Shown piece after piece: positions 8,508 to 39,650 of a stretch of 39,650 nucleotides of DNA. The stretch lies in the sequence record OR204650.1; one strand, 5' to 3'. The stretch is from Escherichia phage pO91. The position numbers and the translations under genes were made by a program. The notes under the pieces are model-generated. The model was not told the origin of the DNA and made no database searches. It saw nothing but the letters and a program-made list of their open reading frames with translations. Position 1 is the stretch's first letter. Each line of letters opens with the position of its first letter.

Positions 8508-8957
8508 ATGACGCTGAAAGAGAAACTGGAGGCTTACTCTAAGGTTTCTCCTTCGGGATGCTGGGAGTGGCAACGCTCCCGGACTAAAACTGGTTATGGT
8601 CAAATAGCTATAGGTCATCAGAAACAGGACTATTCTCACCGAGTTTCGTACAGGGAGTACAAAGGTCCTATACCTGATGGATTGGTTGTTAGACATAAAT
8701 GTGATAACCCTTGCTGCTGTAACCCTGAGCACCTTGAAGTTGGGACTCAGAAGGACAACATGCAGGACTGCGTGAAGCGGGGACGTCACTCGAAACCGCC
8801 AGTATTCAAAGGAGAAGCTAATCACAAGACTAAGCTGACCGAGGAAGACGTAGCGTTTATCCTGAAGTCCAAGCTGAGGCCTATAGAACTTGCTAAGATG
8901 TTTGGTGTTACTCCGCAAGCTATTAATTGGAGACGCAAGAATGGCAAGAACGATTAG
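8508..8957 (+). CDS. HNH homing-endonuclease-like protein (paralog A1)
   Basis: GPIPDGLVVRHKCDNPCCCNPEHLEVGTQKDN, a Cys/His-rich HNH core; free-standing between the SSB and endonuclease I genes. Confidence 0.85.
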   Translation: MTLKEKLEAYSKVSPSGCWEWQRSRTKTGYGQIAIGHQKQDYSHRVSYREYKGPIPDGLVVRHKCDNPCCCNPEHLEVGTQKDNMQDCVKRGRHSKPPVFKGEANHKTKLTEEDVAFILKSKLRPIELAKMFGVTPQAINWRRKNGKND

Positions 8958-10366: not shown

Positions 10367-10445
10367 GCCTCCATAGCTCAAGAGGTAGAGCGGCGGGTCT
10401 TTATGGCCTATTGCGATTAGGGTTCGAATCCCCGTGGAGGCGCCA
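10367..10445 (+). tRNA. tRNA-like element (possible tRNA gene or pseudogene; anticodon arm not resolved)
   Basis: 7-bp acceptor stem GCCTCCA/TGGAGGC plus G-CCA tail; D-arm TAGCTCAAGAGGTAGAGC; T-arm TAGGG-TTCGAAT-CCCCG; the 25-nt middle section does not give a canonical anticodon stem. Confidence 0.45.
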
Positions 10446-14620: not shown

Positions 14621-14947
14621 ATGGGAGGTGTAGCAACCTTACGCTTCCATAAGATGCCTACTGGATGTATCGTCTGTGTATCTCACAAGAGGAACCAAGA
14701 TGGATACTTTCGGTACACGGTAGGCTCTGCCCGTAAGCCGGGACGCAAGGCGTTTATGTTCCACCGATGGGTGTGGGAACAGAAGCGCGGACCTATACCA
14801 GATGGCTACGAGATAGACCATTTGTGCTTGAACCGTGGGTGCTGCAACATAGAGCACCTACAGTGTATTCCAAAGCGCGAACACGTCATTAAGACGAACC
14901 GTGAGCGCAAACTTATTAAGAAGGAGAAGACTAATGGCTATTACTAA
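14621..14947 (+). CDS. HNH homing-endonuclease-like protein (gene 5.3 position)
   Basis: RGPIPDGYEIDHLCLNRGCCNIEHLQ HNH core; immediately after the DNA polymerase gene. Confidence 0.8.
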   Translation: MGGVATLRFHKMPTGCIVCVSHKRNQDGYFRYTVGSARKPGRKAFMFHRWVWEQKRGPIPDGYEIDHLCLNRGCCNIEHLQCIPKREHVIKTNRERKLIKKEKTNGYY

Positions 14948-15218: not shown

Positions 15219-15424
15219 GTGAATACTTACGGGTCCTAGCGGCCCTTAAGTCCTGCCCGAAGACATTTCAGTCCAACTATGTGCGCAACAACGCTGCACT
15301 TGTGGCTGAGGCTGCGAGTCGTGGACATCTAAGCTGCCTGTCTATGGATGGGCGTAACAACGGTGCGTGGGAGATTACCGCTGCTGGCACCAAGTTCCTG
15401 AATCAACACGGAGGCTGCCTGTAA
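15215..15424 (+). CDS. Gene 5.7 homolog
   Basis: MSEYLRVLAALKSCPKTFQSNYVRNNAALVAEAASRGH..C...GRNNGAWEITA.GT almost identical in pattern to recalled T7 gp5.7; 69 aa. Confidence 0.9.
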   Translation: MSEYLRVLAALKSCPKTFQSNYVRNNAALVAEAASRGHLSCLSMDGRNNGAWEITAAGTKFLNQHGGCL

Positions 15425-15807
15425 TGACCGAGTGTACCCGTTGGACTGGCTACTTCCTATCTAATGGGTATGGTCAGATAAAGAAAGCTGGAGTAAAGTG
15501 GCTGGCACATCGTCTGGTTTATACCGAGAACTTCGGTCCAATACCTGATGGTCTGGTGGTCAGGCATAAATGTGACAACCGCTGGTGCGTTAACCCTGAG
15601 CACTTAGAGCTTGGGACTCAGCGTGATAATATAAACGACTGCGTTGCCCGTGGTCGCCATAACAATGCAAAGCTGTCAGACCAGCAGGTTCGTGAAATCC
15701 GCAAGGATAAGCGCAGCTCTCGTGCTGTAGCGGCTGACTATGGGATTGACCATAAAGGCGTACTGGCGGTGCGGAACCGTAAATCTTATCAACATGTGGA
15801 GGACTGA
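15424..15807 (+). CDS. HNH homing-endonuclease-like protein (paralog A2)
   Basis: GPIPDGLVVRHKCDNRWCVNPEHLELGTQRDN; shares an identical 15-aa block with the 8508 protein; ATG overlaps the 5.7 stop. Confidence 0.85.
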   Translation: MTECTRWTGYFLSNGYGQIKKAGVKWLAHRLVYTENFGPIPDGLVVRHKCDNRWCVNPEHLELGTQRDNINDCVARGRHNNAKLSDQQVREIRKDKRSSRAVAADYGIDHKGVLAVRNRKSYQHVED

Positions 15808-21980: not shown

Positions 21981-22547
21981 ATGGCTCAATACATTCCACT
22001 GAATACTAACGATGACTTAGACGCCATCAACGATATGTTAGCTGCTATCGGTGAACCAGCAGTCCTACAGCTTGACGAAGGAAACGCTGATGTCTCGAAC
22101 GCACAACGTATCCTGCATCGTGTCAATCGTCAGGTCCAAGCTAAAGGCTGGAACTTTAATATCAACGAAGCTGCTGTCCTGACACCTGATGTCCAAGACA
22201 ATAGGATTCGATTCTTGCCGTCATACCTTCGTGTAATGACATCTGGGGCCACCAGCTACTACAGCAACATGGGTGGATACCTGTACGACCTGTCCACTCA
22301 GTCAACCACTTTCACCGACCCTATCACGGTAGAGCTTGTGGAGATGAAGCCATTCTCCGAGATGCCTGTGGTCTTCAGGGACTACATCGTCACTAAAGCT
22401 AGCCGTGAGTTCAACGCTAAGTTCTTCGGTAGCCCAGAGTCAGAGCTATACCTTCGTGAGCAGGAAGCAGAACTCTATCAGCAGGTTATGGAGTACGAGA
22501 TGGACACTGGTCGCTACAACATGATGTCTGACATCGGGAGGGACTAA
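21981..22547 (+). CDS. Tail tubular protein A (T7 gene 11 homolog)
   Basis: GEP.V, RIL.R.NRQ.Q..GW.FNI, GGY.YD, EMP..FR..IVTKASR.FN..FFG.PE, MEYEMD.G.YNM match recalled T7 gp11. Confidence 0.93.
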   Translation: MAQYIPLNTNDDLDAINDMLAAIGEPAVLQLDEGNADVSNAQRILHRVNRQVQAKGWNFNINEAAVLTPDVQDNRIRFLPSYLRVMTSGATSYYSNMGGYLYDLSTQSTTFTDPITVELVEMKPFSEMPVVFRDYIVTKASREFNAKFFGSPESELYLREQEAELYQQVMEYEMDTGRYNMMSDIGRD

Positions 22548-22774
22548 TGGCTAGTCACAACCTGAAGATTCACCGCCGGCACTTTGGTCCGGTACAGCTA
22601 GGTATAAAGACAGCAGAGCTGAGACTTAACGACCGGGACTTTAAGGTTGGCGATTGGCTTATCCTGAATGAGTGGGACAACGGGTATACTGGACAACAGG
22701 TAGCGCGTAAGGTTATCCACATTGCTGACGTTGGTGACATCGCTGAAGGATACGTCCTAATGAGTATGATTTAA
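22547..22774 (+). CDS. DUF3850/ASCH-like (PUA-fold) small protein inserted between the gp11 and gp12 genes
   Basis: HNLKIHRRHFGPVQLGIKTAELRLNDRDFKVGDWLILNEWDNGYTGQQ...GYVLMS fits my recollection of the DUF3850 pattern; ATG overlaps the gp11 stop; T7 has no gene here. Confidence 0.6.
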   Translation: MASHNLKIHRRHFGPVQLGIKTAELRLNDRDFKVGDWLILNEWDNGYTGQQVARKVIHIADVGDIAEGYVLMSMI

Positions 22775-25217: not shown

Positions 25218-25682
25218 ATGTATATTCGCAAGGCTACGGAACCAGATGTCCACTACTTTCTGTGGCATCTTTCAGCAGATGATGTTAATGAATGCAAAGC
25301 AAACTACGGGTCAACCGTGGGTCTCTCTGAGAGACTGCTTAAGCACCTATCTCCATCATCTGTGGTCTTAACTAACGGTGTAGGCGAAGTGTTTGCCTAT
25401 GGTGGAAACCAAGGGGATAACGTATGGTTCTTGACTTCGGGTCTTGTCCACAAGCTGAGACCTAAAGAGAAGCGAGAGTTCATAAAGCGTATCTCTGAGT
25501 ACAGGGACTTAATGTTAGACCAATACGGGACCATCTGGAACTACGTGTGGTCAGGCAATAAGTCTCACATTAAATTCTTGAAGTTGCTTGGTGCTAGGTT
25601 TCACGAGGAGTGGACTGTAAGCCCAGTAACTGGTGAGCGTTTTCAACTATTCACTATCTCTAAGGAGGATGGATGTGACTAA
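25218..25682 (+). CDS. Internal virion protein at the gene 13 position
   Basis: ORF track; AAGGAGA RBS; assignment by synteny only. Confidence 0.6.
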   Translation: MYIRKATEPDVHYFLWHLSADDVNECKANYGSTVGLSERLLKHLSPSSVVLTNGVGEVFAYGGNQGDNVWFLTSGLVHKLRPKEKREFIKRISEYRDLMLDQYGTIWNYVWSGNKSHIKFLKLLGARFHEEWTVSPVTGERFQLFTISKEDGCD

Positions 25683-26061
25683 GGTTTGTACCGTCTGTAA
25701 AATTGAAAAGCCGCTCGAGGCATTCTCTCCTCGGAAAGACTCTAAGTGTGGTGTGCGCTCGGCCTGTAAGCTGTGTCATAATGGCAGGAGTCACAAGAAC
25801 AAGGGATACGAGAAGTATCACATTACGCAGATAGAATATGATTCCATCCTAAAAGAGCAGGGTGGTGTCTGCGCAATCTGCAAGACATCAGGAACTAGCC
25901 GAGGATTATGCATTGACCATTGTCACATCTCCTGGAAAGTCCGAGGCATCCTTTGTCATACCTGCAACCTAAAGCTGACCCGTAGAAACTATCCTTCTAC
26001 ATGCGAAGATTTCGATGGTAAGGCTGCTGAGTACCTGGCTATAAGCCAGAAGGGGGATTAG
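25675..26061 (+). CDS. Endonuclease VII-family (HNH-type) nuclease
   Basis: GGVCAICK...RGLCIDHCH...RGILCHTCN matches the T4 endonuclease VII zinc/His-Cys pattern; start uncertain (GTG 25675 after AAGGAGG; the track ORF starts at 25633). Confidence 0.7.
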   Translation: MTKVCTVCKIEKPLEAFSPRKDSKCGVRSACKLCHNGRSHKNKGYEKYHITQIEYDSILKEQGGVCAICKTSGTSRGLCIDHCHISWKVRGILCHTCNLKLTRRNYPSTCEDFDGKAAEYLAISQKGD

Positions 26062-31900: not shown

Positions 31901-32838
31901 TGTCTGACATCGTGGAGCATAGTCTGACTGGCAGTAAGCGTAAGTTCGATGACCGCTGGCTGAAGACCGCTGGTATCTCTGACGAGCAGTGGAAGGGTAT
32001 TAAGTCCCTAATCCGTGAGTCAGTGACTCGTGGTCCAGACGGGAAGTATACCATCAAGGATAAGAAGGCGTTCAGTCAGGACCCAAGGGCTATGGACCTG
32101 TGGCGTATGGGTGACACCATCGCTGACGAGACATTGCTTCGTCCACACAAGCTGAGTAACATGGACGCCAAGGCTTATGGCCCTCTGGCTAAGACTGTCC
32201 TTCAGTTTAAGAACTTCGTCATCAAGTCCATCAATGGGCGTACCATGCGAACCTTCTATAACGCCACGAAGAACAACCGAGCGATGGATGCTGCTCTGTC
32301 CACTGTGATGTCTATGGGTCTTGCTGGTATCTACTACATGGCTCAGGCACACATCAAGGCTTACGCTATGCAGGATGGTCGTGACCGTGACTACCTCAAG
32401 CAAGCTCTGGACCCGACGATGATCGGATATGCGGCTCTGTCCCGTAGTTCACATCTCGGTGGACCACTTGGTGTAGCTAACATTCTGGGTGGTATCGCTG
32501 GGTACGAGGACACTAAGATGCTCCGTTCATCTATCCTACCTCGTTCACCTACAGAGAAGCCTGAACGTGCCATCGCGTATGGTGCAGCTACAAGTGACCC
32601 TGTGATGAATATTGTTGGTAACTTCTTGGAGCAGGTTCCAGCTTTCGGATATGCTGCTAACGTTGGCGCTTCGGCTTACAACTTGGCTGGCTACCTAAAG
32701 GCCGATACTCGTGTCAACGAGCGTGACTACATGACCGGGATGTATAATACGTTCCGTGAACTGGTTCCGAACGACCCCATTACCCAGAAGCTGTTACTTG
32801 GAACGTTTGAGGAGCAAGGCATCCACATCAAGGACTAA
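28951..32838 (+). CDS. Internal virion protein (T7 gene 16 homolog) with a non-T7 N-terminal module
   Basis: From about residue 185 collinear with recalled T7 gp16 (STWFGF, PTRWN, VAGGDA, RLEARETARN, DLVRSPTGMQSGASGK, GTYVPHVY, ILTGRARR, LDPTMI); first ~180 aa lack SLT motifs; ATG 28951 after AAGGAG. Confidence 0.92.
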   Translation: MATRGIRNNNLGNLRVSKDQWEGAVGDDGAFVIFDSPESGVRALAKNLQSYGRQGYDSIEKIINRWAPPNENDTQSYINSVVAATGIPATQSLDLSDPDTLSSLAQAIGFHETGSRYDPEVYQKGVARALNGISPKTPPVSANVFDALTEGLKAKPNVALGENLPTAAGLNIEGQTPEAPNESFGEMFYKATGETMQEREDRSTWFGFGAATEAEVKNSMGGVAIRAGQTEDSLDVIGDVFNPTRWNNHKWTREELDQIRNAGVLPQYYGVITGGSPQNLTELINLALENQKLDQEKAKAGTGAQLAAGVIGAGVDPLTYVPIAGQVWKGGKLVNKMFTVAAQSGALAGVSERARTSVAGGDAHVAEAILGGALFGGGMTAIADGLGRALGRNTNEFAGPATRLEARETARNVDGQDLSRMPIREGEETFSHQGVKFADVPNEPGSVRLEDGSILIGENPLNPKTRQVFDEVIEPERAAAGVNLGGLTEIGLKLLRSENPEIRGVAADLVRSPTGMQSGASGKIGTTASDVFERLRAVDHRFYNDIDDAVTEALKDPYFQTAFWRDSGAFRQDVYQRVSMAIEDGSGNLKAELTPGELKVYDLLKNQFDAKREMMENPSMFGRPDAKSIFPGSRFKGTYVPHVYSNQMKELYIKELGSPEALQEAIKKSWLTSYASRPEVKKRVDEALLEADPTLTPEGLAAAVDKYANDKAYGISHTEQFERSSVMEENINGLVGLENNSFLEARNLFDSDMSIVLPNGQTFSVNNLREWDMDKIVPAYNRRVNGDIAIMAGTGKTTKDMKDLVETLMNKAGDDGKLKGEVSTLRDTLKILTGRARRDGADDAAFNTVLRTMTDLSFFAKNAYMGVQNLTEIGGMLARGNVRAMLHGVPMFRDLAFRNKKVGASEIKDLHNVLFGKELDDSIRPSKQDVIDRLRSYSDLGRGTATALGTAKYYTGELAVRSPLTKVLNGTTNYLLDAGRQGFLSDIVEHSLTGSKRKFDDRWLKTAGISDEQWKGIKSLIRESVTRGPDGKYTIKDKKAFSQDPRAMDLWRMGDTIADETLLRPHKLSNMDAKAYGPLAKTVLQFKNFVIKSINGRTMRTFYNATKNNRAMDAALSTVMSMGLAGIYYMAQAHIKAYAMQDGRDRDYLKQALDPTMIGYAALSRSSHLGGPLGVANILGGIAGYEDTKMLRSSILPRSPTEKPERAIAYGAATSDPVMNIVGNFLEQVPAFGYAANVGASAYNLAGYLKADTRVNERDYMTGMYNTFRELVPNDPITQKLLLGTFEEQGIHIKD

Positions 32839-32856
32839 ACTATCACTATAGGAAAC
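32834..32856 (+). promoter_or_regulatory. Phage RNAP promoter (phi17-like)
   Basis: ACTAAACTATCACTATAGGAAAC; followed by leader hairpin AAACGGGAG...CTCCGTTT. Confidence 0.8.
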
Positions 32857-32902
32857 GGGAGGCGCTACCATAGGTCTCCGTTTAAATCACAAAGGAGGCA
32901 TA

Positions 32903-35023
32903 ATGTCCACGATTACACAATTCCCTTCAGGAAACACTCAGTACAGGATTGAGTTCGACTACCTAGCCAGAACGTTTGTTGTTGTTACGCTGGTGAATAG
33001 CTCTAACCCTACCCTGAACCGTGTACTGGAAGTTGGTCGAGATTACCGATTCCTTAATCCAACGATGATTGAGATGTTGGTTGACCAATCAGGTTTCGAC
33101 ATCGTTCGTATTCACCGTCAGACTGGAACTGACTTAGTGGTAGACTTCAGGAATGGCTCAGTGTTGACAGCTAGTGACCTGACCAATGCAGAGCTTCAGG
33201 CTATCCATATTGCAGAAGAAGGTCGAGACCAAACTGTTGACTTAGCGAAGGAATATGCCGATGCTGCTGGTAGCTCTGCTGGCAACGCTAAGGATAGCGA
33301 GGACGAAGCACGACGAATCGCTGCTACTATCAAGGCAGCTAGTCTAGTTGGTTATATTACCCGTCGCTCCTTCGAGAAAGGCTTCAACGTTACAACATGG
33401 AACGAGGCCCTGCTATGGGAAGAGGATGGTGATTATTACCGCTGGGATGGTACGCTTCCAAAGAACGTTCCTGCTGGTTCAACTCCTGAAACGTCTGGTG
33501 GCATTGGGTTAGGCGCGTGGGTTAGTGTCGGCGATGCTACATTGCGCAATCAAATATCTGACCCTGACGGTGCCACTAAGTACCCAGCGTTACAAATTGC
33601 GCGTTGGCGTGATGAAGGAGATGTGCGCGGTTGGGGTGCTGGTGAAGAAGGTTTTAACGCCGCGATGTCTGCTATTAGCTCATCAGGAGGTGGGACGTTA
33701 TTTGTAAACGAGGATATTCTTTTCACTTCGTTACCTATTAACCACCTACCAAAAGTTACAGTCCACTGGAACGCTAAGGCAATTGTGCAGACCGGACTTA
33801 CATCGACTTACGCCTACATCATGGACGGTGGCGCCGATACTCCATCTTATGATAATACCGACCACTTTACGCTAGCTAACAAAACTAACTGTTACGGCTT
33901 GCGTTTAGAGGCGCAGGATTACACTGTCGGGATCAATGCCATTGGTGTATGTGTTAGGCATTGCTACGGGTGGACTTACGAAGGGGGAGCCATTATCGGA
34001 TTTAATAATGGAGGTTTCTACGAGACTAACAACTACGAAGGAAAAGCCAGCAAGTTCACTCTAGTTGTAGCCAATACAAGACTTGATAACTCCGTGGGGT
34101 TTGAAAGTAATTCAACTGACAGTTGGTTTAGTGAAATTTCGCCAGTAGGTTATTCAATCGGTGGAAAGTTTAATAAGAGTGGTAACTCTCTAGATAAATT
34201 TCATCCATGGGGAAACACTGTTGATAATCGCGTAGGCGTGATGGGGAAGATGAATGTTGGTATCGTAATTACAGAGAATGGAGGTTTTTCTACATATTCA
34301 AATATTATTCTTGATACTCCAGTAAGGAAAAACACCAATAATGTCCCATCTAGAAGTAATGGTGGGGTTGGTGTAATTTGTGATGCATGGGACTGCGTTC
34401 TTGATGGGATTCTTGTATTACCGTCCAAACATGACACAGTAGCAAAAAGTACCTTACCAATGATCACCACTACGCAAAGATCAACAATAAAAGATTTTCA
34501 GGTTTCGGGTGAGCAGTATGTAACAGACATATGGATTTCATTTGAAAACAATTCAGGGATAGCCAGGAATCACGTTTCAGGTTATGGGTATGCTGAAAAA
34601 ATGCGTACAGGAATGACCTTTGGGCCTAATTCTGGAGCTGCCCTTGCAAGTGCTGGGGGTGTAACGATGTCGAGCCAAACTCTGACCTCTGGAATATGGA
34701 ACAACACATTAAGTTTTTCCATAGCTACAACAGTAACAGCTATACCGTCAGCAACAGGTGATGTAATTGTTAATATATCTCCTGTTTATGGCATTAAATC
34801 TGGATTCGGAGGTACTGTTAAGGGTGGTATGTTTGCATTCTTCTATGCTACCGCTAACTCCTCCAAACAATTGTACGATGTGTCCATAGAAGTTACAGCA
34901 GACAACACAGCTAAGTTTCTGCTAACGTTTATCGACGGCACGACACGGTACGCACGATGGACAGATGTATCTAACGGTTCATCAAGAAGCATAAGCATAT
35001 CAGGAGTCCTTAATATAAAATAA
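32903..35023 (+). CDS. Tail fibre / tailspike protein (T7 gene 17 homolog N-terminus, divergent C-terminal receptor-binding module)
   Basis: N-terminal ~150 aa (FDYLARTFVVVTL, DYRF, DFRNGSVLTASDL, AEEGRD) match the recalled T7 gp17 adaptor domain; the remainder is unrelated to T7 and the last ~1 kb is visibly AT-rich. Confidence 0.9.
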   Translation: MSTITQFPSGNTQYRIEFDYLARTFVVVTLVNSSNPTLNRVLEVGRDYRFLNPTMIEMLVDQSGFDIVRIHRQTGTDLVVDFRNGSVLTASDLTNAELQAIHIAEEGRDQTVDLAKEYADAAGSSAGNAKDSEDEARRIAATIKAASLVGYITRRSFEKGFNVTTWNEALLWEEDGDYYRWDGTLPKNVPAGSTPETSGGIGLGAWVSVGDATLRNQISDPDGATKYPALQIARWRDEGDVRGWGAGEEGFNAAMSAISSSGGGTLFVNEDILFTSLPINHLPKVTVHWNAKAIVQTGLTSTYAYIMDGGADTPSYDNTDHFTLANKTNCYGLRLEAQDYTVGINAIGVCVRHCYGWTYEGGAIIGFNNGGFYETNNYEGKASKFTLVVANTRLDNSVGFESNSTDSWFSEISPVGYSIGGKFNKSGNSLDKFHPWGNTVDNRVGVMGKMNVGIVITENGGFSTYSNIILDTPVRKNTNNVPSRSNGGVGVICDAWDCVLDGILVLPSKHDTVAKSTLPMITTTQRSTIKDFQVSGEQYVTDIWISFENNSGIARNHVSGYGYAEKMRTGMTFGPNSGAALASAGGVTMSSQTLTSGIWNNTLSFSIATTVTAIPSATGDVIVNISPVYGIKSGFGGTVKGGMFAFFYATANSSKQLYDVSIEVTADNTAKFLLTFIDGTTRYARWTDVSNGSSRSISISGVLNIK

Positions 35024-35141
35024 ATAACCCCGCCGAACCGGGTAGAGGGTCGAAGGTTGTGGAGGTAGAGGCTAACTGCACGCTGACCAACGTATGTAAC
35101 AACTTTGGGTCACGGACGACCCGCTTTAAACTGGAGGTTTT

Positions 35142-35336
35142 ATGATTGAGTTAGACTTCAAGAATGAGGTCCTTAAAGCCTCTCCTATCGTCGGGACCGC
35201 TGCGGCTGATGGTGCCAGTCGGTTCTTCTTCGGACTTACACTGAACGAATGGTTCTACGTTGCAGTTATCGCGTACACCGTTGTCCAGATTGGTGTGCTA
35301 GTCTACAAAACGATTAAAGGAGGTGGTAAAACATGA
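35142..35336 (+). CDS. Holin (T7 gene 17.5 homolog)
   Basis: LDFKNEVLKASPIVGT..AD...RFFFGLTLNEWFYVAVIAYTVVQIG matches recalled T7 gp17.5. Confidence 0.92.
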   Translation: MIELDFKNEVLKASPIVGTAAADGASRFFFGLTLNEWFYVAVIAYTVVQIGVLVYKTIKGGGKT

Positions 35337-35596
35337 CGCAGATGGACTTAGAGAAGTTCCTCTTAATGCTAGATACTGAACGTGCTCGACTCATGTTGCA
35401 AGACTTACGTGACGACTCTAAGCGTTCACCTCAGCTTTACAACGCCATTGAGAAGCTACTGGCTCGTCACAACTTTGTGTTAAGCAAGGTGTCTGTGGAC
35501 GAGAAGACGCTGGCTGATATGGAGGCCCTGAACGCAGAGTACGATAAGGTGCTTTCAGCGACTGAGGATAATGACACCGGGTATGGTGTTCAATAA
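35333..35596 (+). CDS. Terminase small subunit (T7 gene 18 homolog)
   Basis: FLLMLDT, RSPQLYNAIEKLLARH match recalled T7 gp18. Confidence 0.88.
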   Translation: MTQMDLEKFLLMLDTERARLMLQDLRDDSKRSPQLYNAIEKLLARHNFVLSKVSVDEKTLADMEALNAEYDKVLSATEDNDTGYGVQ

Positions 35597-35599
35597 GTG

Positions 35600-35646
35600 T
35601 TAGACTCAAGGTCATTACTATATGTAGTGGCCTTTATGGTTAACAC
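35600..35646 (+). promoter_or_regulatory. Conserved hairpin element, copy 3 (putative RNase III site, R18.5-like position)
   Basis: TAGACTCAAGGTCA...TGGCCTTTATGGTTAAC; stem AAGGTCA/TGGCCTT at 35608-35614 and 35628-35634. Confidence 0.5.
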
Positions 35647-35697
35647 TAACTAGTGGAGGCGACTCTACGTGAAATCTGATAAACCGGGAGGGCATCT

Positions 35698-36135
35698 ATG
35701 CTCGAATTTTTAAAGAGAGCGGCTCCGTGGTTACTTGCAGCAGTGATGTTTGCTGGTGGCTACCACACCGCTAACAATAAGTGGGAGGCTAAGGTCAATG
35801 CAGAATACACCTCGAATCTTAAGGCATCGGAAGATACAAGGCTTGCTGTCCAAGCTGAAGTCAACAAAGTGTCCAGACGGTTTCAGGACGAAATGTCCTC
35901 GCTGGAAGGCAGCACTGATAGGATTATTGCTGACCTTCAGTCTGACAATAAGCGGTTGCGCGTCAAAGTCAACACCTCAGGTCTCACCGAGTCCGATATC
36001 AGTCGATGCTTCCCTAATGGTAGAGTCGAATTACACGAGTCAACTTCTAGAAGTCTTATCGAAATAACCCAGAAGGCAGACTTAAAGGAGAAGGCTTTAC
36101 AGGATACCATAAGGAGGTTGCAGGGTGCTAAGTGA
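35698..36135 (+). CDS. Rz-like i-spanin (T7 gene 18.5 homolog)
   Basis: MLEFLKRAAPWLLA, LEGSTDRIIADLQSDNKRLRVKV, LQDTIRRLQ match recalled T7 gp18.5. Confidence 0.92.
   Translation: MLEFLKRAAPWLLAAVMFAGGYHTANNKWEAKVNAEYTSNLKASEDTRLAVQAEVNKVSRRFQDEMSSLEGSTDRIIADLQSDNKRLRVKVNTSGLTESDISRCFPNGRVELHESTSRSLIEITQKADLKEKALQDTIRRLQGAK
35798..36067 (+). CDS. Rz1-like o-spanin lipoprotein embedded in the +1 frame of Rz (T7 gene 18.7 homolog)
   Basis: PRWKAALIGLLLTFSLTISGCAS lipobox and SVDASLMVE match recalled T7 Rz1; GGAGG 9 nt before ATG 35798; wholly inside the Rz gene. Confidence 0.85.
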   Translation: MQNTPRILRHRKIQGLLSKLKSTKCPDGFRTKCPRWKAALIGLLLTFSLTISGCASKSTPQVSPSPISVDASLMVESNYTSQLLEVLSK

Positions 36136-36511
36136 TTTAGTATATGAAGACGGGAAGCTGCTTAAAGGTGGGAAGGAGGTGGGTCACATCTCTAACCACG
36201 GCTACAGGCGCTTCAAGATAAACGGAAAGAACTATTTGGTCCACCGCTTGATTTACAAGATGCACAATCCTGAGTTCGACATTCTATCTGAACTGGTTGT
36301 GGACCACATCAACCGCAACCGTCTGGACAACATGATTGAGAACCTAAGGGCTGTGACCACGGCGGAGAATAACAGGAACCACGCTCCACCACTAGGTGTA
36401 TCATTCTGTAAACAGACTGGTAAATGGAAGGCGATTCATCCCCGGTGGCTTGGACGTTTTGATACAAAAGAGGAGGCCCTTAATGCAGTCAACGCCGCAA
36501 GACAGGAATAA
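36125..36511 (+). CDS. HNH_3-type homing endonuclease with AP2-like DNA-binding domain (paralog B1)
   Basis: [30 protein letters not shown] core followed by [28 protein letters not shown]; between Rz and large terminase; start uncertain (GTG 36125 or GTG 36178 after GGAAGGAGG). Confidence 0.8.
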
Positions 36512-38246
36512 TGAGCTGACCTCTCGGATGAAGGCGGACTTTGTGTTCTTTCTCTTTGTCCTGTGGAAAGCACTATCACTTCCCCCCCCGACTCGCTGTC
36601 AGATTGACATTGCTCGAAAGGTATCTAATGGGGGCAACCGCCGATTCATCCTTCAGGCTTTTCGAGGCGTGGGTAAGTCGTTCCTCCTATGTGCCTTCGT
36701 GGTCTGGAAGCTATGGAACAACCCAGACTTGAAGTTCATGATTGTGTCGGCCTCAAAGGAACGAGCCGATGCTAACTCCATATTCATCAAGCGAATCATC
36801 GACCTCATGCCTCAGCTTCAGGAACTAAAACCTAAGCAGGGGCAGCGAGATGCGGTTATCAGCTTCGACGTTGGGCCAGCCAAGCCAGACCACTCACCTT
36901 CGGTTAAGTCCGTTGGTATCACTGGTCAATTGACTGGTAGTCGTGCCGACATCCTGATTGCCGATGACGTGGAGGTTCCGAACAACTCAGCGACTCAGGC
37001 TGCACGAGACCGCCTGTCAGAGCTTGTGAAAGAGTTCGACGCTATCCTGAAGCCGGGAGGTACAATCATCTATCTGGGTACTCCTCAGAACGAGATGACC
37101 TTGTATCGTGAGCTGGAAGGCCGTGGGTACACCACTACTATCTGGCCAGCTCGTTATCCACGCGACAGGAAGGACTGGCAGTCTTACGGAGACCGTCTGG
37201 CTCCTATGCTTCAGGCAGAGCTGGAAGAGGACCCTGAGGCATTCTACTGGCGTCCAACCGATGAAATACGATTCGATGATACGGACCTTAAGGAACGTGA
37301 GTTGTCATATGGTAAAGCTGGCTTCGCTCTACAGTTCATGCTTAACCCGAACCTGAGTGATGCTGAGAAGTACCCTCTGAAGCTCCGTGACCTTATCGTA
37401 GCGGACTTGGACCCAGCGTCCAGTCCAATGGTCTACCAATGGTTGCCGAACCCTCAGAACAAGCGTGAGGACGTTCCTAACGTTGGACTCATGGGTGACT
37501 CATACCACACGTATCAGACTGTAGGTTCTGCCTTCAGTTCGTACACCCAGAAGATTCTGGTCATTGACCCTAGTGGTCGTGGTAAGGATGAAACTGGTTA
37601 TGCGGTACTATATCAGCTCAACGGCTACATCTTCGCTATGGAAGTTGGTGGTATGCGTGGTGGCTATGAAGACTCTACGCTGGAAGCCTTGGCTAAGATT
37701 GGTCGTAAGTGGAAGGTCAACGAATACGTCATTGAGGGTAACTTCGGTGATGGTATGTACCTTGAGCTATTCAAGCCTGTAGCGGCCCGTATCCATCCTT
37801 CGGCTGTAACTGAAGTGAAGAGTAAGGGTCAGAAAGAACTCCGCATCTGTGACGTTCTGGAGCCTATCATGGGGTCTCACAGACTTATCGTCAACGCTGC
37901 TGCTATCGTCCAAGACTACCAGACAGCCTCTGACAAGGATGGTGTGCGTAACCCTATCTACTCTCTCTTCTACCAGATGACACGTATCTCTCGTGAACGT
38001 GGAGCCTTGGCACACGATGACAGACTTGATGCTCTAGCTATCGGTGTACAGTTCTTCGTTGAGTCTATGGCTAAGGATGCCAACAAAGGCGAACGTGAAG
38101 TCACTGAGGAGTGGCTGGAGGAACAGATGGAGAACCCACGGAAAGGCTTCGAGTCCATCCACACTGAGTTCTGGGACAATGGTGTCCGGGTAACTCACGA
38201 TATGGACGACGAGCTGGGGCTAGGGTCCTACGTTACGTTTCATTAA
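36483..38246 (+). CDS. Terminase large subunit (T7 gene 19 homolog)
   Basis: 587 aa versus 586 in T7; [108 protein letters not shown]; ATG 36483 after AGGAGG. Confidence 0.97.
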
Positions 38247-38259
38247 ATAAGGAGGTATT

Positions 38260-38802
38260 ATGGCGAAGGTGAAGGACATCGACAGGGTGTCCCTCTTCGA
38301 CCACTATGCGTATGTTGATGGACAACTGGTGTGCAGGAAGCCTTTCGGCAGCTCGAAGAAGACCCCGGGCGAACCTATGGGCTTCTCTGTACACCCTTCC
38401 GGATACGCCATAGTGAAGGTGCTTGGAGGTAGGTATAGACGCTCTCGAATCATATACAGTCTAGCTGTAGGTCGAATACCTAAGGGTATGATGGTCGACC
38501 ACATCAATGGTGATAGGCTGGACGATAGACCTGAGAACTACAGGCTTGTTACTGCGCTTGAGAACCGCTGGAACTCAGAGGGTGGAGAGACTAATGGTCT
38601 CCCTAAGGGTATCAGCTTCTTCAAGCCAACAGGTAAATATCGTGCTCAGCTTCGGGTTCATGGTAAGTGTTTCACTAAGACTTCGGATTCCATAGAGGAA
38701 CTAGAGGCATGGCTGGCTGCTCTACGAACAGAGAAGCACAAGGAATACGCAGTAAACCGACGGTCCCCTACGCGAGATAGGACATACAGAAACCGTAAGT
38801 AG
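38260..38802 (+). CDS. HNH_3-type homing endonuclease with AP2-like domain (paralog B2)
   Basis: MVDHINGDRLDDRPENYRLVTALEN plus GISFFKPTGKYRAQLRVHGK; directly after the large terminase gene; AAGGAGG RBS. Confidence 0.85.
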   Translation: MAKVKDIDRVSLFDHYAYVDGQLVCRKPFGSSKKTPGEPMGFSVHPSGYAIVKVLGGRYRRSRIIYSLAVGRIPKGMMVDHINGDRLDDRPENYRLVTALENRWNSEGGETNGLPKGISFFKPTGKYRAQLRVHGKCFTKTSDSIEELEAWLAALRTEKHKEYAVNRRSPTRDRTYRNRK

Positions 38803-38815
38803 AATCAACAGGTTA

Positions 38816-38838
38816 ACTAAACTATCACTATAGGGATG
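38816..38838 (+). promoter_or_regulatory. Phage RNAP promoter near the right end (phiOR-like)
   Basis: ACTAAACTATCACTATAGGGATG; transcript begins GGGATGGGGGGACCGGGGGGACC. Confidence 0.8.
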
Positions 38839-38924
38839 GGGGGACCGGGGGGACCTTACTATATGCCGACCAAAAGTTAGCATATATACATATATAAGGT
38901 AGACCTTAAGTCTCCCTATTGTTA

Positions 38925-38943
38925 ACACACACACACACACACA
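38925..38943. repeat. (AC)9 dinucleotide microsatellite
   Basis: ACACACACACACACACACA at 38925-38943; adjacent alternating TA/CA tract at 38879-38897. Confidence 0.9.
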
Positions 38944-39084
38944 TATGCAGACTTTATGCAAGACCTTAGGAGGCAGACTCCGAGTTCTTACCTAAGGCTT
39001 GCACCGATGGAAGGAGGGTGATATTAATCATAATCCCTCCAATACAGATAGTCACCGACCATAGATACAGGAGGTATGTAGCAT

Positions 39085-39243
39085 ATGGCAAAGACCAAAG
39101 CTGTACTTAAAGCTCTGGCGACCAATCGAGCTACATACAGGTTTCTTGCTGCTGTTCTACTTGCTGCTGGCGTTACTGCTGGAAGTCAGTGGGTCGGGTG
39201 GGTCGAGACTCTCGTATGCTCTCTGGTCTCTCAGTGTAATTAA
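39085..39243 (+). CDS. Hypothetical small membrane protein (52 aa) near the right end
   Basis: AGGAGG 10 nt before ATG 39085; hydrophobic core FLAAVLLAAGVTAGS; not in the ORF track (under 60 aa). Confidence 0.4.
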   Translation: MAKTKAVLKALATNRATYRFLAAVLLAAGVTAGSQWVGWVETLVCSLVSQCN

Positions 39244-39404
39244 TGCAATCATGGTAACGCTTCATGAGCGGAAGACCTAAGGTCAGTTCATAGCTGACGC
39301 TACTCTACTGACCTTAGCTACTGTAGTCAAGGACTTTAGGTAACACCTTAATAGAAGCTCACTTAGGGTCATCCTACTTATTGGTCTATCCTAGTGTCGC
39401 CTGA

Positions 39405-39441
39405 CCTACGGTCCTTGACCTACAGTAGCTGCCACCTACAG
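39405..39441. repeat. Right-end copies of the CCTACAGT-family short repeat
   Basis: CCTACGGT at 39405, CCTACAGT at 39418 and 39434; same family as the left-end array. Confidence 0.55.
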
Positions 39442-39478
39442 TCTTCGATTAGTTTTGGACCAAAAGTTTGAGACCACA

Positions 39479-39650
39479 TCTCACAGTTCAAGAACCTCAA
39501 GTCTCCCCCATAGGCCCTCTTTCAGTCCAGACCAAGGATGGCCCTACCTCCAGTCTATCACAAGGTTAGACAGACGGTCAAGACTTCAGGTCAACGATAG
39601 GTCATGACGATAGGTGGTGGTGGAGACGATAGGTTGGGACTATGGGTCTG
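39479..39650. repeat. Terminal-repeat-like region (single collapsed copy; probable physical genome end near 39479)
   Basis: TCTCACAGTTCAAGAACCTCAAGTCTCCCCCATAGG resembles the first bases of the recalled T7 genome; window end joined to window start resembles the recalled end of the T7 terminal repeat. Confidence 0.4.

Follow-up and report, generated by a model that had tools for sequence, protein, structure and literature searches.

Putative HNH_3 homing endonuclease genes on both sides of the terminase large subunit gene of Escherichia phage pO91

Escherichia phage pO91 is a T7-like Kayfunavirus, and its whole genome (OR204650.1, 39,650 nt) is the stretch of DNA analysed here, referred to below as the window. 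The terminase large subunit gene (terL) of this phage is bracketed by two open reading frames, here called HNH-A (before terL) and HNH-B (after it), as an earlier note on this DNA had stated and as a check of the coordinates confirmed (Table 1). The overlaps also agree with that description, as HNH-A shares 29 nt (36483-36511) with terL and 11 nt with the end of the Rz-like gene, whose TGA stop lies at 36133-36135. The last 24 nt of the Rz-like gene are the site of both the ribosome-binding site and the start codon of HNH-A; the gene itself scored 24.5 bits against Pfam Phage_lysis, slightly below the cut-off of 25.4. The true ATG of terL is at 36483, and its product, which is 95% identical to TerL of relatives, matched the Pfam families Terminase-T7_RNaseH-like (E 1e-37) and Terminase_6N. 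HNH-A and HNH-B, 'hypothetical proteins' of phage pO91, gain a proper annotation.

Table 1. Features at the terL locus of phage pO91 (positions in the window; nuclease and AP2-like assignments are predictions)
Feature	Position	Strand	Remarks
Rz-like i-spanin gene (gene 18.5)	35698..36135	+	Pfam Phage_lysis E 3.5e-5; Rz-like spanin annotation in relatives
Shine-Dalgarno AGGAGG of HNH-A	36112..36117	+	inside Rz coding sequence, 7 nt 5' of GTG 36125
HNH-A, putative free-standing HNH_3 homing endonuclease gene	36125..36511	+	128 aa
Divergent patch linked to HNH-A	36138..36710	+	BLAST boundaries, binned identity, breakpoint map
AP2-like C-terminal domain of HNH-A	36395..36508	+	residues 91-128, three strands and a helix
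terL Shine-Dalgarno GAGGAGG	36470..36476	+	6 nt before terL ATG
terL, terminase large subunit gene (T7 gene 19 type)	36483..38246	+	one uninterrupted ORF
B-specific segment	38247..38940	+	HNH-B, phage promoter and ~100 nt beyond promoter
Shine-Dalgarno AAGGAGGT of HNH-B	38249..38256	+	begins 3 nt past terL stop codon
HNH-B, putative free-standing HNH_3 homing endonuclease gene	38260..38802	+	180 aa
AP2-like domain of HNH-B	38596..38739	+	roughly residues 113-160
Phage-RNA-polymerase promoter core ACTATCACTATAGGGA	38821..38836	+	19 nt past HNH-B stop

The start of HNH-A, which had been called ambiguous, turned out to be well defined, since the GTG at 36125 is served by the AGGAGG upstream of it and no better in-frame start is present. 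Orthologues begin with ATG at the homologous codon, the layout of AAGGAGG plus start recurs in relatives, and the deposited protein WMM35660.1 of phage pO91 is exactly the 128-aa sequence read from this GTG; the deposited WMM35662.1 is likewise identical to HNH-B. Both genes are free-standing, with ribosome-binding sites and starts of their own and with terL left intact. Rfam scans found no intron in the window and none in the loci of the Yersinia fPS phages discussed below; an intron or intein setting is ruled out by the Rfam result together with the uninterrupted terL frame. The genome holds 11 phage-RNA-polymerase promoter sites against 0.35 expected by chance. The site that follows HNH-B, whose homologous place in Citrobacter phage CR44b and in the fPS phages carries a promoter annotation, is the first since 32839, thus HNH-A, terL and HNH-B would all lie on late transcripts. 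Counts of sigma-70 promoters and intrinsic terminators in a scan of 32800-39650 were not above those in shuffled sequence. Altogether, pO91 carries six homing-endonuclease-like genes in 39.6 kb, and the four besides HNH-A and HNH-B are located elsewhere in the genome.

Profile searches assigned both proteins to the HNH_3 family, as had been proposed, and did so well above the Pfam threshold: the E values were 5e-15 for HNH-A and 3.7e-15 for HNH-B (about 55 bits each, cut-off 24.8), and against PHROG 99 they were 6e-38 and 9e-40, respectively. The two proteins are paralogous, with 37% identity over 109 aa (E 2e-14). A search with HNH-B alone gave only 3 clusters, and an alignment was then used as the query. 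Across 122 homologues the residues of the D-H...N...N pattern show no variation or very little (at least 90% conserved). H61, N73, R75 and N85 of HNH-A are invariant, as are H81, N93 and R95 of HNH-B, while the adjacent D60 and D80 are conserved in at least 90%; the predicted catalytic pairs D60-H61 and D80-H81 are encoded at 36302-36307 and 38497-38502. The HNH_3 motifs quoted in the earlier note occur in HNH-A as stated, and the motif MVDHINGDRLDDRPENYRLVTALEN is present in HNH-B, but the latter protein reads ENYR and not ENLR.

Both proteins align to the active-site stretch of I-HmuI (Bacillus phage SPO1, PDB 1U3E), the archetypal HNH_3 homing endonuclease and the best solved relative of the two. 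For HNH-A the likeness was found by sequence (phmmer, E 2e-4) and by fold, its AlphaFold model (pLDDT 94.1) giving 1u3e as the top Foldseek match (E 8e-5, probability 1.0, 34% identity over 88 columns). The HNH-B model (pLDDT 89.8) also had I-HmuI (1u3e) as its top Foldseek match (probability 1.0), and a direct sequence search of HNH-B against the PDB gave no meaningful match. I-HmuI and the pO91 proteins have in common a beta-hairpin region at the N-terminus and a beta-beta-alpha-metal core with DH...N...N. I-HmuI, which is a nicking enzyme, is intron-encoded and reads DNA with a C-terminal helix-turn-helix, whereas the pO91 genes are free-standing and their products would end in an AP2-type domain.

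The assignment of that C-terminal domain to AP2 held: it is supported by family profiles and, for HNH-B, by fold, but both proteins remain below the Pfam cut-off. HNH-A scored 17.7 bits (E 0.0047) against Pfam AP2 (PF00847, gathering cut-off 33.3), HNH-B gave no match to it at E <= 1, and matches at E <= 1e-3 were obtained for 35 of the 122 homologues. A profile of the C-terminal family, with both window sequences among its members, matches the plant AP2/ERF structures WRI1, ERF096, TEM1 and AtERF1 with E from 1e-16 to 6e-7. When the profile was built from AP2-positive relatives only, it detected HNH-A (32.9 bits, residues 91-128) and HNH-B (18.6 bits, residues 116-136), whereas none of the three remaining HNH_3 genes of the window matched it. 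The models predict strands at residues 92-95, 100-104 and 108-112 and a helix at 115-127 in HNH-A, and strands at 118-121, 126-133 and 136-142 and a helix at 145-159 in HNH-B. The Foldseek comparison with AP2 structures was weak for HNH-A (probability 0.14) and strong for HNH-B, which matched the AP2 domain of AtERF1 (1gcc) with probability 0.99 and TM 0.68. Profiles and models together support homology to AP2 of the small three-strand-plus-helix domain predicted at the C-terminus of both proteins.

HNH plus AP2 is a recognised architecture of homing endonuclease genes (HEGs), for which the surroundings of terminase genes are hot spots (PMC10448857). Phages, cyanobacteria and protists all have HEGs with these two domains (PMC10448857, citing Magnani et al. 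2004), in comparison to which the pO91 AP2 domains are shortened (HNH-A) or divergent (HNH-B). The 'IPA-HNH' HEGs of ICP1 likewise lie beside essential genes, including terminase, and are tied to recombination boundaries (Barth et al. 2023, PMC10448857); however, their HNH domains have diverged too far to be matched by Pfam HNH_3, while the pO91 proteins are canonical members. AP2 domains of phage origin have also been co-opted as repressors (bioRxiv 10.64898/2026.02.23.707548; PMC10448857, discussion), and the pO91 proteins might then be mainly sequence-specific DNA binders controlling transcription, similarly to CasPR/CapR-like HEG-derived proteins. With the conserved HNH active site intact in both of them, we consider this extremely improbable. 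An identity as CasPR-like AP2 repressors was rejected, CasPRs being devoid of HNH and combining CapR with AP2 in phages of Bacillota.

What the earlier note had missed is that the HNH-A cassette supplies the ribosome-binding site, start and N-terminus of terL, and that a divergent terL tract is linked to it. The 3' end of HNH-A contains the terL Shine-Dalgarno sequence, the ATG and the first ~11-14 codons. The Shine-Dalgarno sequence falls in the codons of the conserved 'EEA' of the predicted AP2 helix, and an AGGAGG or GGAGGG equivalent, with the terL ATG likewise inside the HEG, was found in all seven A-type orthologues examined, which come from two genera. The start of HNH-A, overlapping the Rz stop, takes the position of terL's own start in HEG-less genomes. 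Since HNH-A carries the terL start signals, expression of the HEG and of terL is physically interlocked, and a simple loss of the HEG would remove those signals too. A HEG can thus capture the translation start of the essential gene next to it and provide a new one; in the engineering of therapeutic T7-like phages, removal of 'junk' HNH genes beside terL could harm terL expression.

Homology to HEG-less relatives stops at 36137, and neither the HEG body nor the first ~11-14 codons of terL have a counterpart in HEG-less genomes. The first ~230 nt of terL are 73-78% identical to every aligned phage-database relative (11 genomes), while the remainder is 91-97% identical, and the same patch is 98-100% identical in L094, which has a different backbone. 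To find the donor, 36138-36725 was compared by distant blastn with 50,697 phage records, which gave at most 75% identity for the HEG part and at most ~80% for the terL part, and the 90% protein cluster of HNH-A holds only four metagenomic sequences. Co-conversion predicts sharp edges of the cassette and a divergent terL 5' tract linked to it, both of which are seen here, and a ~230-nt tract travelling with the HEG may give mosaic boundaries and apparent TerL N-terminal variation, as met in phage comparative genomics, a HEG cause. However, phiYIO1-1 and BUCT788, both of which carry HNH-A, share their terL 5' haplotype with CR44b and Penshu1, which lack it; the haplotypes are not strictly tied to the presence of the HEG, and ordinary T7-like recombination could yield much of the mosaicism. 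On the B side, homology to B-less genomes, among which are Penshu1 and P7124, stops at 38245/6 and restarts at 38941 (BLAST boundaries). The empty B slot of Penshu1 was aligned to CR44b 3.8B and to the window in search of a HEG remnant, and the alignment was unconvincing.

Comparison with relatives lacking the genes, suggested by the earlier note as a check, showed a presence/absence polymorphism at fixed sites in near-identical genomes. Orthologues of the A type sit without exception at the Rz/terL junction and overlap terL by 26-29 nt; those in 7 Kayfunavirus records are about 70% identical to HNH-A, and those in Yersinia Helsettvirus records, at least 18 in number, about 58%. The latter include Gp045 of the fPS-series phages (58-59% identity), a true HNH-A orthologue from another genus and host that sits in the same Rz/terL slot and has been called an unusual late-region homing endonuclease (Salem & Skurnik 2018, PMC5923468). 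It shares with HNH-A the 29-nt overlap and the 'ATG CAG TCA' start of terL, but has another HNH downstream of it, and the annotation of fPS-9 shows terL, unlike that of pO91, divided by one more ORF with an HNH label. B-type orthologues were found in 14 Kayfunavirus records and lie directly after terL in 7 of the 7 examined as loci. The product of T7 gene 3.8 is a homologue of HNH-B (36% identity over residues 60-164) and also a free-standing HNH in a T7-like genome, but its gene sits in the DNA-metabolism (class II) region and not beside terL.

The same two Kayfunavirus slots can also be taken by other HEG lineages, namely 3.8A and 3.8B of CR44b and ORF48 of Hafnia phage Ca, HNH_3 genes only about 30% identical to HNH-A and HNH-B; the insertion point of 3.8A gives a different terL N-terminus (MSKKTPAERQ...). 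In relatives whose terL is 91-97% identical beyond its first ~230 nt, the two slots are filled by A, B, other HNH families or nothing, in the combinations (A,-), (-,B), (38A,38B), (38A,B), (A,38B) and (-,-). HNH-A occurs without HNH-B in 6 phage records, and 13 have HNH-B, either by itself or accompanied by a different HNH; the two are found together only in phiYIO1-1 and pO91, and neither is present in most of the closest IMG/VR relatives. The view of the earlier note that they are a pair is not supported, since they are only 37% identical, occur independently, can be replaced in their slots by unrelated HNH families and are two of six such genes in the genome. In Kayfunavirus and Helsettvirus both flanks of terL are recurrent landing pads for several HNH lineages, as the mapped boundaries document. 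Some 'empty' A slots are, to judge from their sequences, remnants of another HEG, as HEG-less derivatives of the other slot-A family retain an open frame of 17-23 codons that begins at the start codon overlapping Rz and ends in a stop overlapping the terL ATG; Penshu1 has a site of this scar type.

This distribution bears on the function of the proteins. HNH proteins encoded beside the large terminase gene are known from HK97, where those of the gp74 type are conserved and are required for packaging in cos phages that have a Terminase_1-type TerL (PMC8861465, PMC10448857), and in HK97-like phages HNH proteins near terminase genes are needed for cos cleavage, according to the passages in which these two papers cite the work. 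As both pO91 genes adjoin terL, their products could in principle assist the terminase in concatemer cutting. However, the pO91 genes are sporadic, missing from most relatives with 91-97% identical TerL; HNH-A and HNH-B assort independently, and unrelated HNH families can fill the same slots. The TerL that they flank is of the T7 type with an RNase-H-like nuclease domain of its own, direct terminal repeats and not cos ends are annotated in relatives, and the proteins belong to a different HNH family, being I-HmuI-like HNH_3 proteins with an AP2 reader as in known HEGs. A role as terminase cofactors is thus very unlikely, and we rejected it on distribution, HNH family and TerL type. On the best reading the pO91 genes are ordinary HEGs at a known hot spot, neither packaging cofactors nor a new type of system.

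We conclude, with a probability of about three in four (0.74), that HNH-A and HNH-B are two independent free-standing I-HmuI-like HNH_3 HEGs in landing pads flanking terL. In each protein a beta-hairpin region at the N-terminus would be followed by a His-Me-finger nuclease and, at the C-terminus, by a domain of AP2 type that reads the DNA sequence, and both enzymes would be made late from the long transcripts of the phage RNA polymerase. During mixed infection either enzyme could nick or cut the HEG-less allele of a co-infecting relative, and the insertion boundaries point to putative targets at or near the Rz/terL junction for HNH-A and at the terL/promoter spacer for HNH-B. Recombinational repair from the HEG-carrying genome would then copy the HEG and flanking DNA into the recipient, while the carrier would be immune as the insertion has replaced its target sequence. 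The same nuclease and DNA-reading architecture would be needed by enzymes that exclude rivals by cutting the DNA of co-infecting relatives, or of the host, with no copying of their own genes, and six such genes in one 39.6-kb genome suggest some benefit in mixed infections. We nevertheless find pure competition quite unlikely, as each lineage is tied to one site (A at Rz/terL; B after terL in the loci examined), the cassette boundaries are clean and the same A patch occurs in different backbones, all of which is predicted by copying into a cognate site. Competition and homing largely overlap in any case, as in marker exclusion.

Both genes are under strong purifying selection, with dN/dS of 0.06-0.15 for HNH-A and 0.07-0.13 for HNH-B, and decayed copies were absent among the orthologues examined. 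Together with the conserved terL overlap, this would also fit a host-beneficial or cis-acting role. HNH-A might be an entrenched, domesticated HEG, kept mainly for the terL start signals and for Rz-terL translational coupling, whose nuclease may no longer home. The low dN/dS, the terL ribosome-binding site and ATG within the gene in all seven orthologues examined from two genera, and the short frames retained in the HEG-less derivatives agree with this. However, purifying selection spans the whole HNH-A protein, including the catalytic residues, and not just its 3' end; many relatives thrive with no HEG, their terL start directly overlapping the Rz stop, as does the TTG of JSS1 and CHRF_30001, and the patchy spread over two genera argues for ongoing mobility. 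Domestication is therefore unlikely in our view. Equally unlikely is the idea that a slot-A HEG, by taking the Rz-coupled start position and encoding the terL start signals in its AP2 helix codons, has made itself hard to lose, so that deletions persist only if they are internal, in frame and leave the relay ORF, to which the 17-23-codon scars would point, and that two flanking HEGs could drive the replacement of the whole of terL in mixed infections, making it a HEG-propelled mobile cassette among T7-like genera. In Hafnia phage Ca, where ORF48 overlaps the lysis gene and terL, a HEG-minus variant with a 397-bp deletion coexists in stocks, and small plaques are dominated by HEG-deleted genomes (PMC8861465), the latter being in line with entrenchment.

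The gene order of pO91 is T7-like, with the RNA polymerase, DNA metabolism, structural, holin, terS, Rz/Rz1 and terL genes on the + strand throughout, and 11 phage-promoter-like sites matching ACTATCACTATAGGGA are present, compared with 0.35 expected by chance. The nearest relatives are Kayfunavirus phages (Studiervirinae; nucleotide identity 87-95%). The two ORFs bracketing the terminase large subunit gene (terL), here called HNH-A (upstream) and HNH-B (downstream), were found by exact-sequence look-up to be WMM35660.1 and WMM35662.1, both entered as 'hypothetical protein' of pO91. Their positions, overlaps and motifs, read from the sequence, are as the earlier note described. That note also called the HNH-A start ambiguous. 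It is not really so, because GTG 36125 comes 7 nt after AGGAGG, the nearby ATG 36144 is out of frame, orthologues carry ATG at the homologous start codon (MLTDFAY... vs MLSDLVY...), and WMM35660.1 was deposited with the same start.

Features of the pO91 terL locus and of other genes discussed in the text
Feature	Coordinates	Strand	Remark
HNH-A	36125-36511	+	overlaps the Rz end (stop 36133-36135) and terL (ATG 36483) by 29 nt
terL ribosome-binding site GAGGAGG	36470-36476	+	inside the codons for 'EEA' of the HNH-A AP2 helix
HNH-B	38260-38802	+	starts 14 nt past the terL stop
B-specific DNA	38247-38940	+	includes promoter 38821-38836 and ~100 nt further on
HNH_3 gene	8508-8957	+	homing-endonuclease-like
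HNH_3 gene	14621-14947	+	homing-endonuclease-like
HNH_3 gene	15367-15807	+	homing-endonuclease-like
Endonuclease_7-type gene	25633-26061	+	homing-endonuclease-like
tRNA-like gene	10367-10445	+	between phage promoter 10303-10318 and the primase/helicase gene
DUF3850/ASCH-domain gene	22547-22774	+	75 aa; wedged between both tail tubular protein genes

The HNH_3 core proposed for both ORFs was recovered by Pfam (E 5e-15 for HNH-A, 3.7e-15 for HNH-B), and both match PHROG 99, 'HNH endonuclease' (E 6e-38 and 9e-40, respectively). The two proteins share 37% identity over 109 residues. The catalytic His and Asn are invariant over 109-122 homologues, and the adjoining Asp is kept in at least 90%. The AlphaFold models are confident (pLDDT 94.1 for HNH-A and 89.8 for HNH-B), and the best Foldseek match of both is I-HmuI (probability 1.00; E 8e-5 for HNH-A), which HNH-A also resembles by sequence (1U3E, E 2e-4, with the DH...N...N stretch aligned).

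For the AP2-like C-terminal domain Pfam alone is weak: HNH-A scores 17.7 bits vs a cut-off of 33.3, and HNH-B gives no AP2 match. The call is nevertheless right, because four tests beyond Pfam's verdict on the two proteins support it. Firstly, 35 of 122 homologues match Pfam AP2 at E <= 1e-3. Secondly, a C-terminal family profile, which took in both pO91 sequences, matches the plant AP2/ERF structures WRI1, ERF096, TEM1 and AtERF1 (E 1.2e-16 to 5.8e-7). Thirdly, a profile restricted to relatives having precomputed AP2 hits matches residues 91-128 of HNH-A (32.9 bits) and 116-136 of HNH-B (18.6 bits), with no match in the other three HNH_3 proteins of the genome or in control proteins. Finally, both models end in three strands and a helix; that of HNH-B matches AtERF1 1gcc (Foldseek probability 0.99, TM 0.68), and HNH-A matches AP2 structures weakly. 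The domain is shortened in HNH-A and divergent in HNH-B.

All evidence fits HNH-A and HNH-B being free-standing homing endonuclease genes (HEGs) at a hot spot; presumably both proteins cleave target sites and support homing. HNH plus AP2 is a recognised HEG architecture, and HEGs are enriched around terminase genes (PMC10448857). The fPS orthologue of HNH-A has already drawn comment in the literature, as a homing endonuclease of the late region (PMC5923468). Hafnia phage Ca has, in the same Rz/terL slot, an HEG of the type of CR44b gene 3.8A, found side by side with a variant carrying a 397-bp deletion (PMC8861465).

The two genes had been described as a pair; they are no functional pair. Seven Kayfunavirus records (~70% identity) and at least 18 Yersinia Helsettvirus records (58-59%) contain an A-type orthologue, always at Rz/terL and overlapping terL by 26-29 nt. 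B-type orthologues occur in 14 Kayfunavirus records (82-92%), directly behind terL in all seven records examined as loci. The lists share phiYIO1-1 only, and other HNH_3 lineages use the same slots: CR44b carries 3.8A and 3.8B in both, SR04 a 3.8A-type gene together with B, fPS-59 an A-type gene and yet another HNH, and one metagenomic contig a pO91-type A with a 3.8B-type gene. Among the 13 closest IMG/VR relatives, only two have an HNH gene adjoining terL. Purifying selection acts on HNH-A and HNH-B (dN/dS 0.06-0.15), and every orthologue examined has its full length. An HK97-style packaging-cofactor role is rejected on grounds of distribution, HNH family and TerL type.

A third slot, terS-Rz (35597-35697), is empty in pO91; BUCT788 has an HNH_3 gene there (L086:2173-2574) and phiYIO1-1 an Endonuclease_7-type gene (L001:1226-1501). 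In Yersinia phage fPS-9 (L088:3359-5898) the annotation divides terL into g046 and g048, with g047, an ORF labelled HNH endonuclease, in between. No Pfam match was found for g047 at E <= 0.01 and no intron by Rfam at the gathering threshold; the gene could be split here or contain an intron that went unrecognised.

The original observation is correct and the element of an ordinary kind, and a modest addition is that HNH-A is interlocked with the terL translation start. Compared with A-less genomes, homology ends at 36137 and returns at ~36517-36526, therefore the A cassette takes in the first ~11-14 codons of terL. In each of the seven A-type orthologues examined, from both genera, AGGAGG or GGAGGG stands at the equivalent place and 'ATG CAG T..' comes after it. 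The slot has three states, each with a distinct TerL N-terminus: (M)SKDLVARQALMTARMKADF without an HEG, the start codon of terL then being a TTG that overlaps the stop of Rz; MSKKTPAERQ... with a 3.8A-type HEG; and MQS/LTPQ... with an A-type HEG.

Further modest additions are probable HEG remnants in 'empty' sites and a divergent terL tract linked to HNH-A. The Penshu1 slot (L003:2026-2079) holds a 17-codon ORF that joins the opening codons of a 3.8A-type HEG to its final ones (VLNDYYKVD|LMLEGLYV), and that of Ro45lw (L090, ~120 nt upstream of terL) a 23-codon ORF of the same make-up. In both, the frame still opens at a GTG that overlaps Rz and closes at a stop codon that overlaps the ATG of terL. 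We infer that they are deletion remnants of a CR44b-3.8A-type gene and not pre-existing small ORFs; they may be in-frame deletion scars in which translational coupling was preserved.

Over its first ~230 nt, pO91 terL shares 73-78% identity with each of the ten phage-database relatives aligned, and over the remainder 91-97%, with a sharp breakpoint; no closer donor of the HNH-A/terL 5' patch was found in the phage collection. A metagenomic phage (L094) whose Rz 5' end and downstream HNH differ carries this patch at 98-100% identity, so the patch travels as a unit. The terL 5' haplotypes track HEG presence imperfectly. Rz is mosaic too, with C-terminal variants of 145 aa (...RRLQGAK) and 147-149 aa (...QQDKE..); in L094 its first ~240 nt are 58-80% identical to pO91 (35698-36135) and the remainder 98-100%. 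At 38840-38943, in HNH-B-linked DNA downstream of the promoter, lie GGGGGGACCGGGGGGACC and a (CA)9 microsatellite (38926-38943), neither found in B-less relatives.

The four further HEG-like genes neighbour ssb/endonuclease I, DNA polymerase, exonuclease and gp13; two of the three HNH_3 genes among them give weak, sub-threshold zf-His_Me_endon matches. The genome also contains the DUF3850/ASCH-domain gene and the tRNA-like gene listed in the table. The latter scores 35.9 bits with Rfam tRNA (cut-off 29) and is called 'tRNA-Stop' by ARAGORN; its anticodon, TTA, would decode UAA, and the CCA end is encoded. A conserved 141-nt region here recurs in 151 phage records (at least 80% covered in 34, ~90-94% identity), and the labels it bears there are inconsistent: tRNA-OTHER, tRNA-Thr, tRNA-Pseudo or none.
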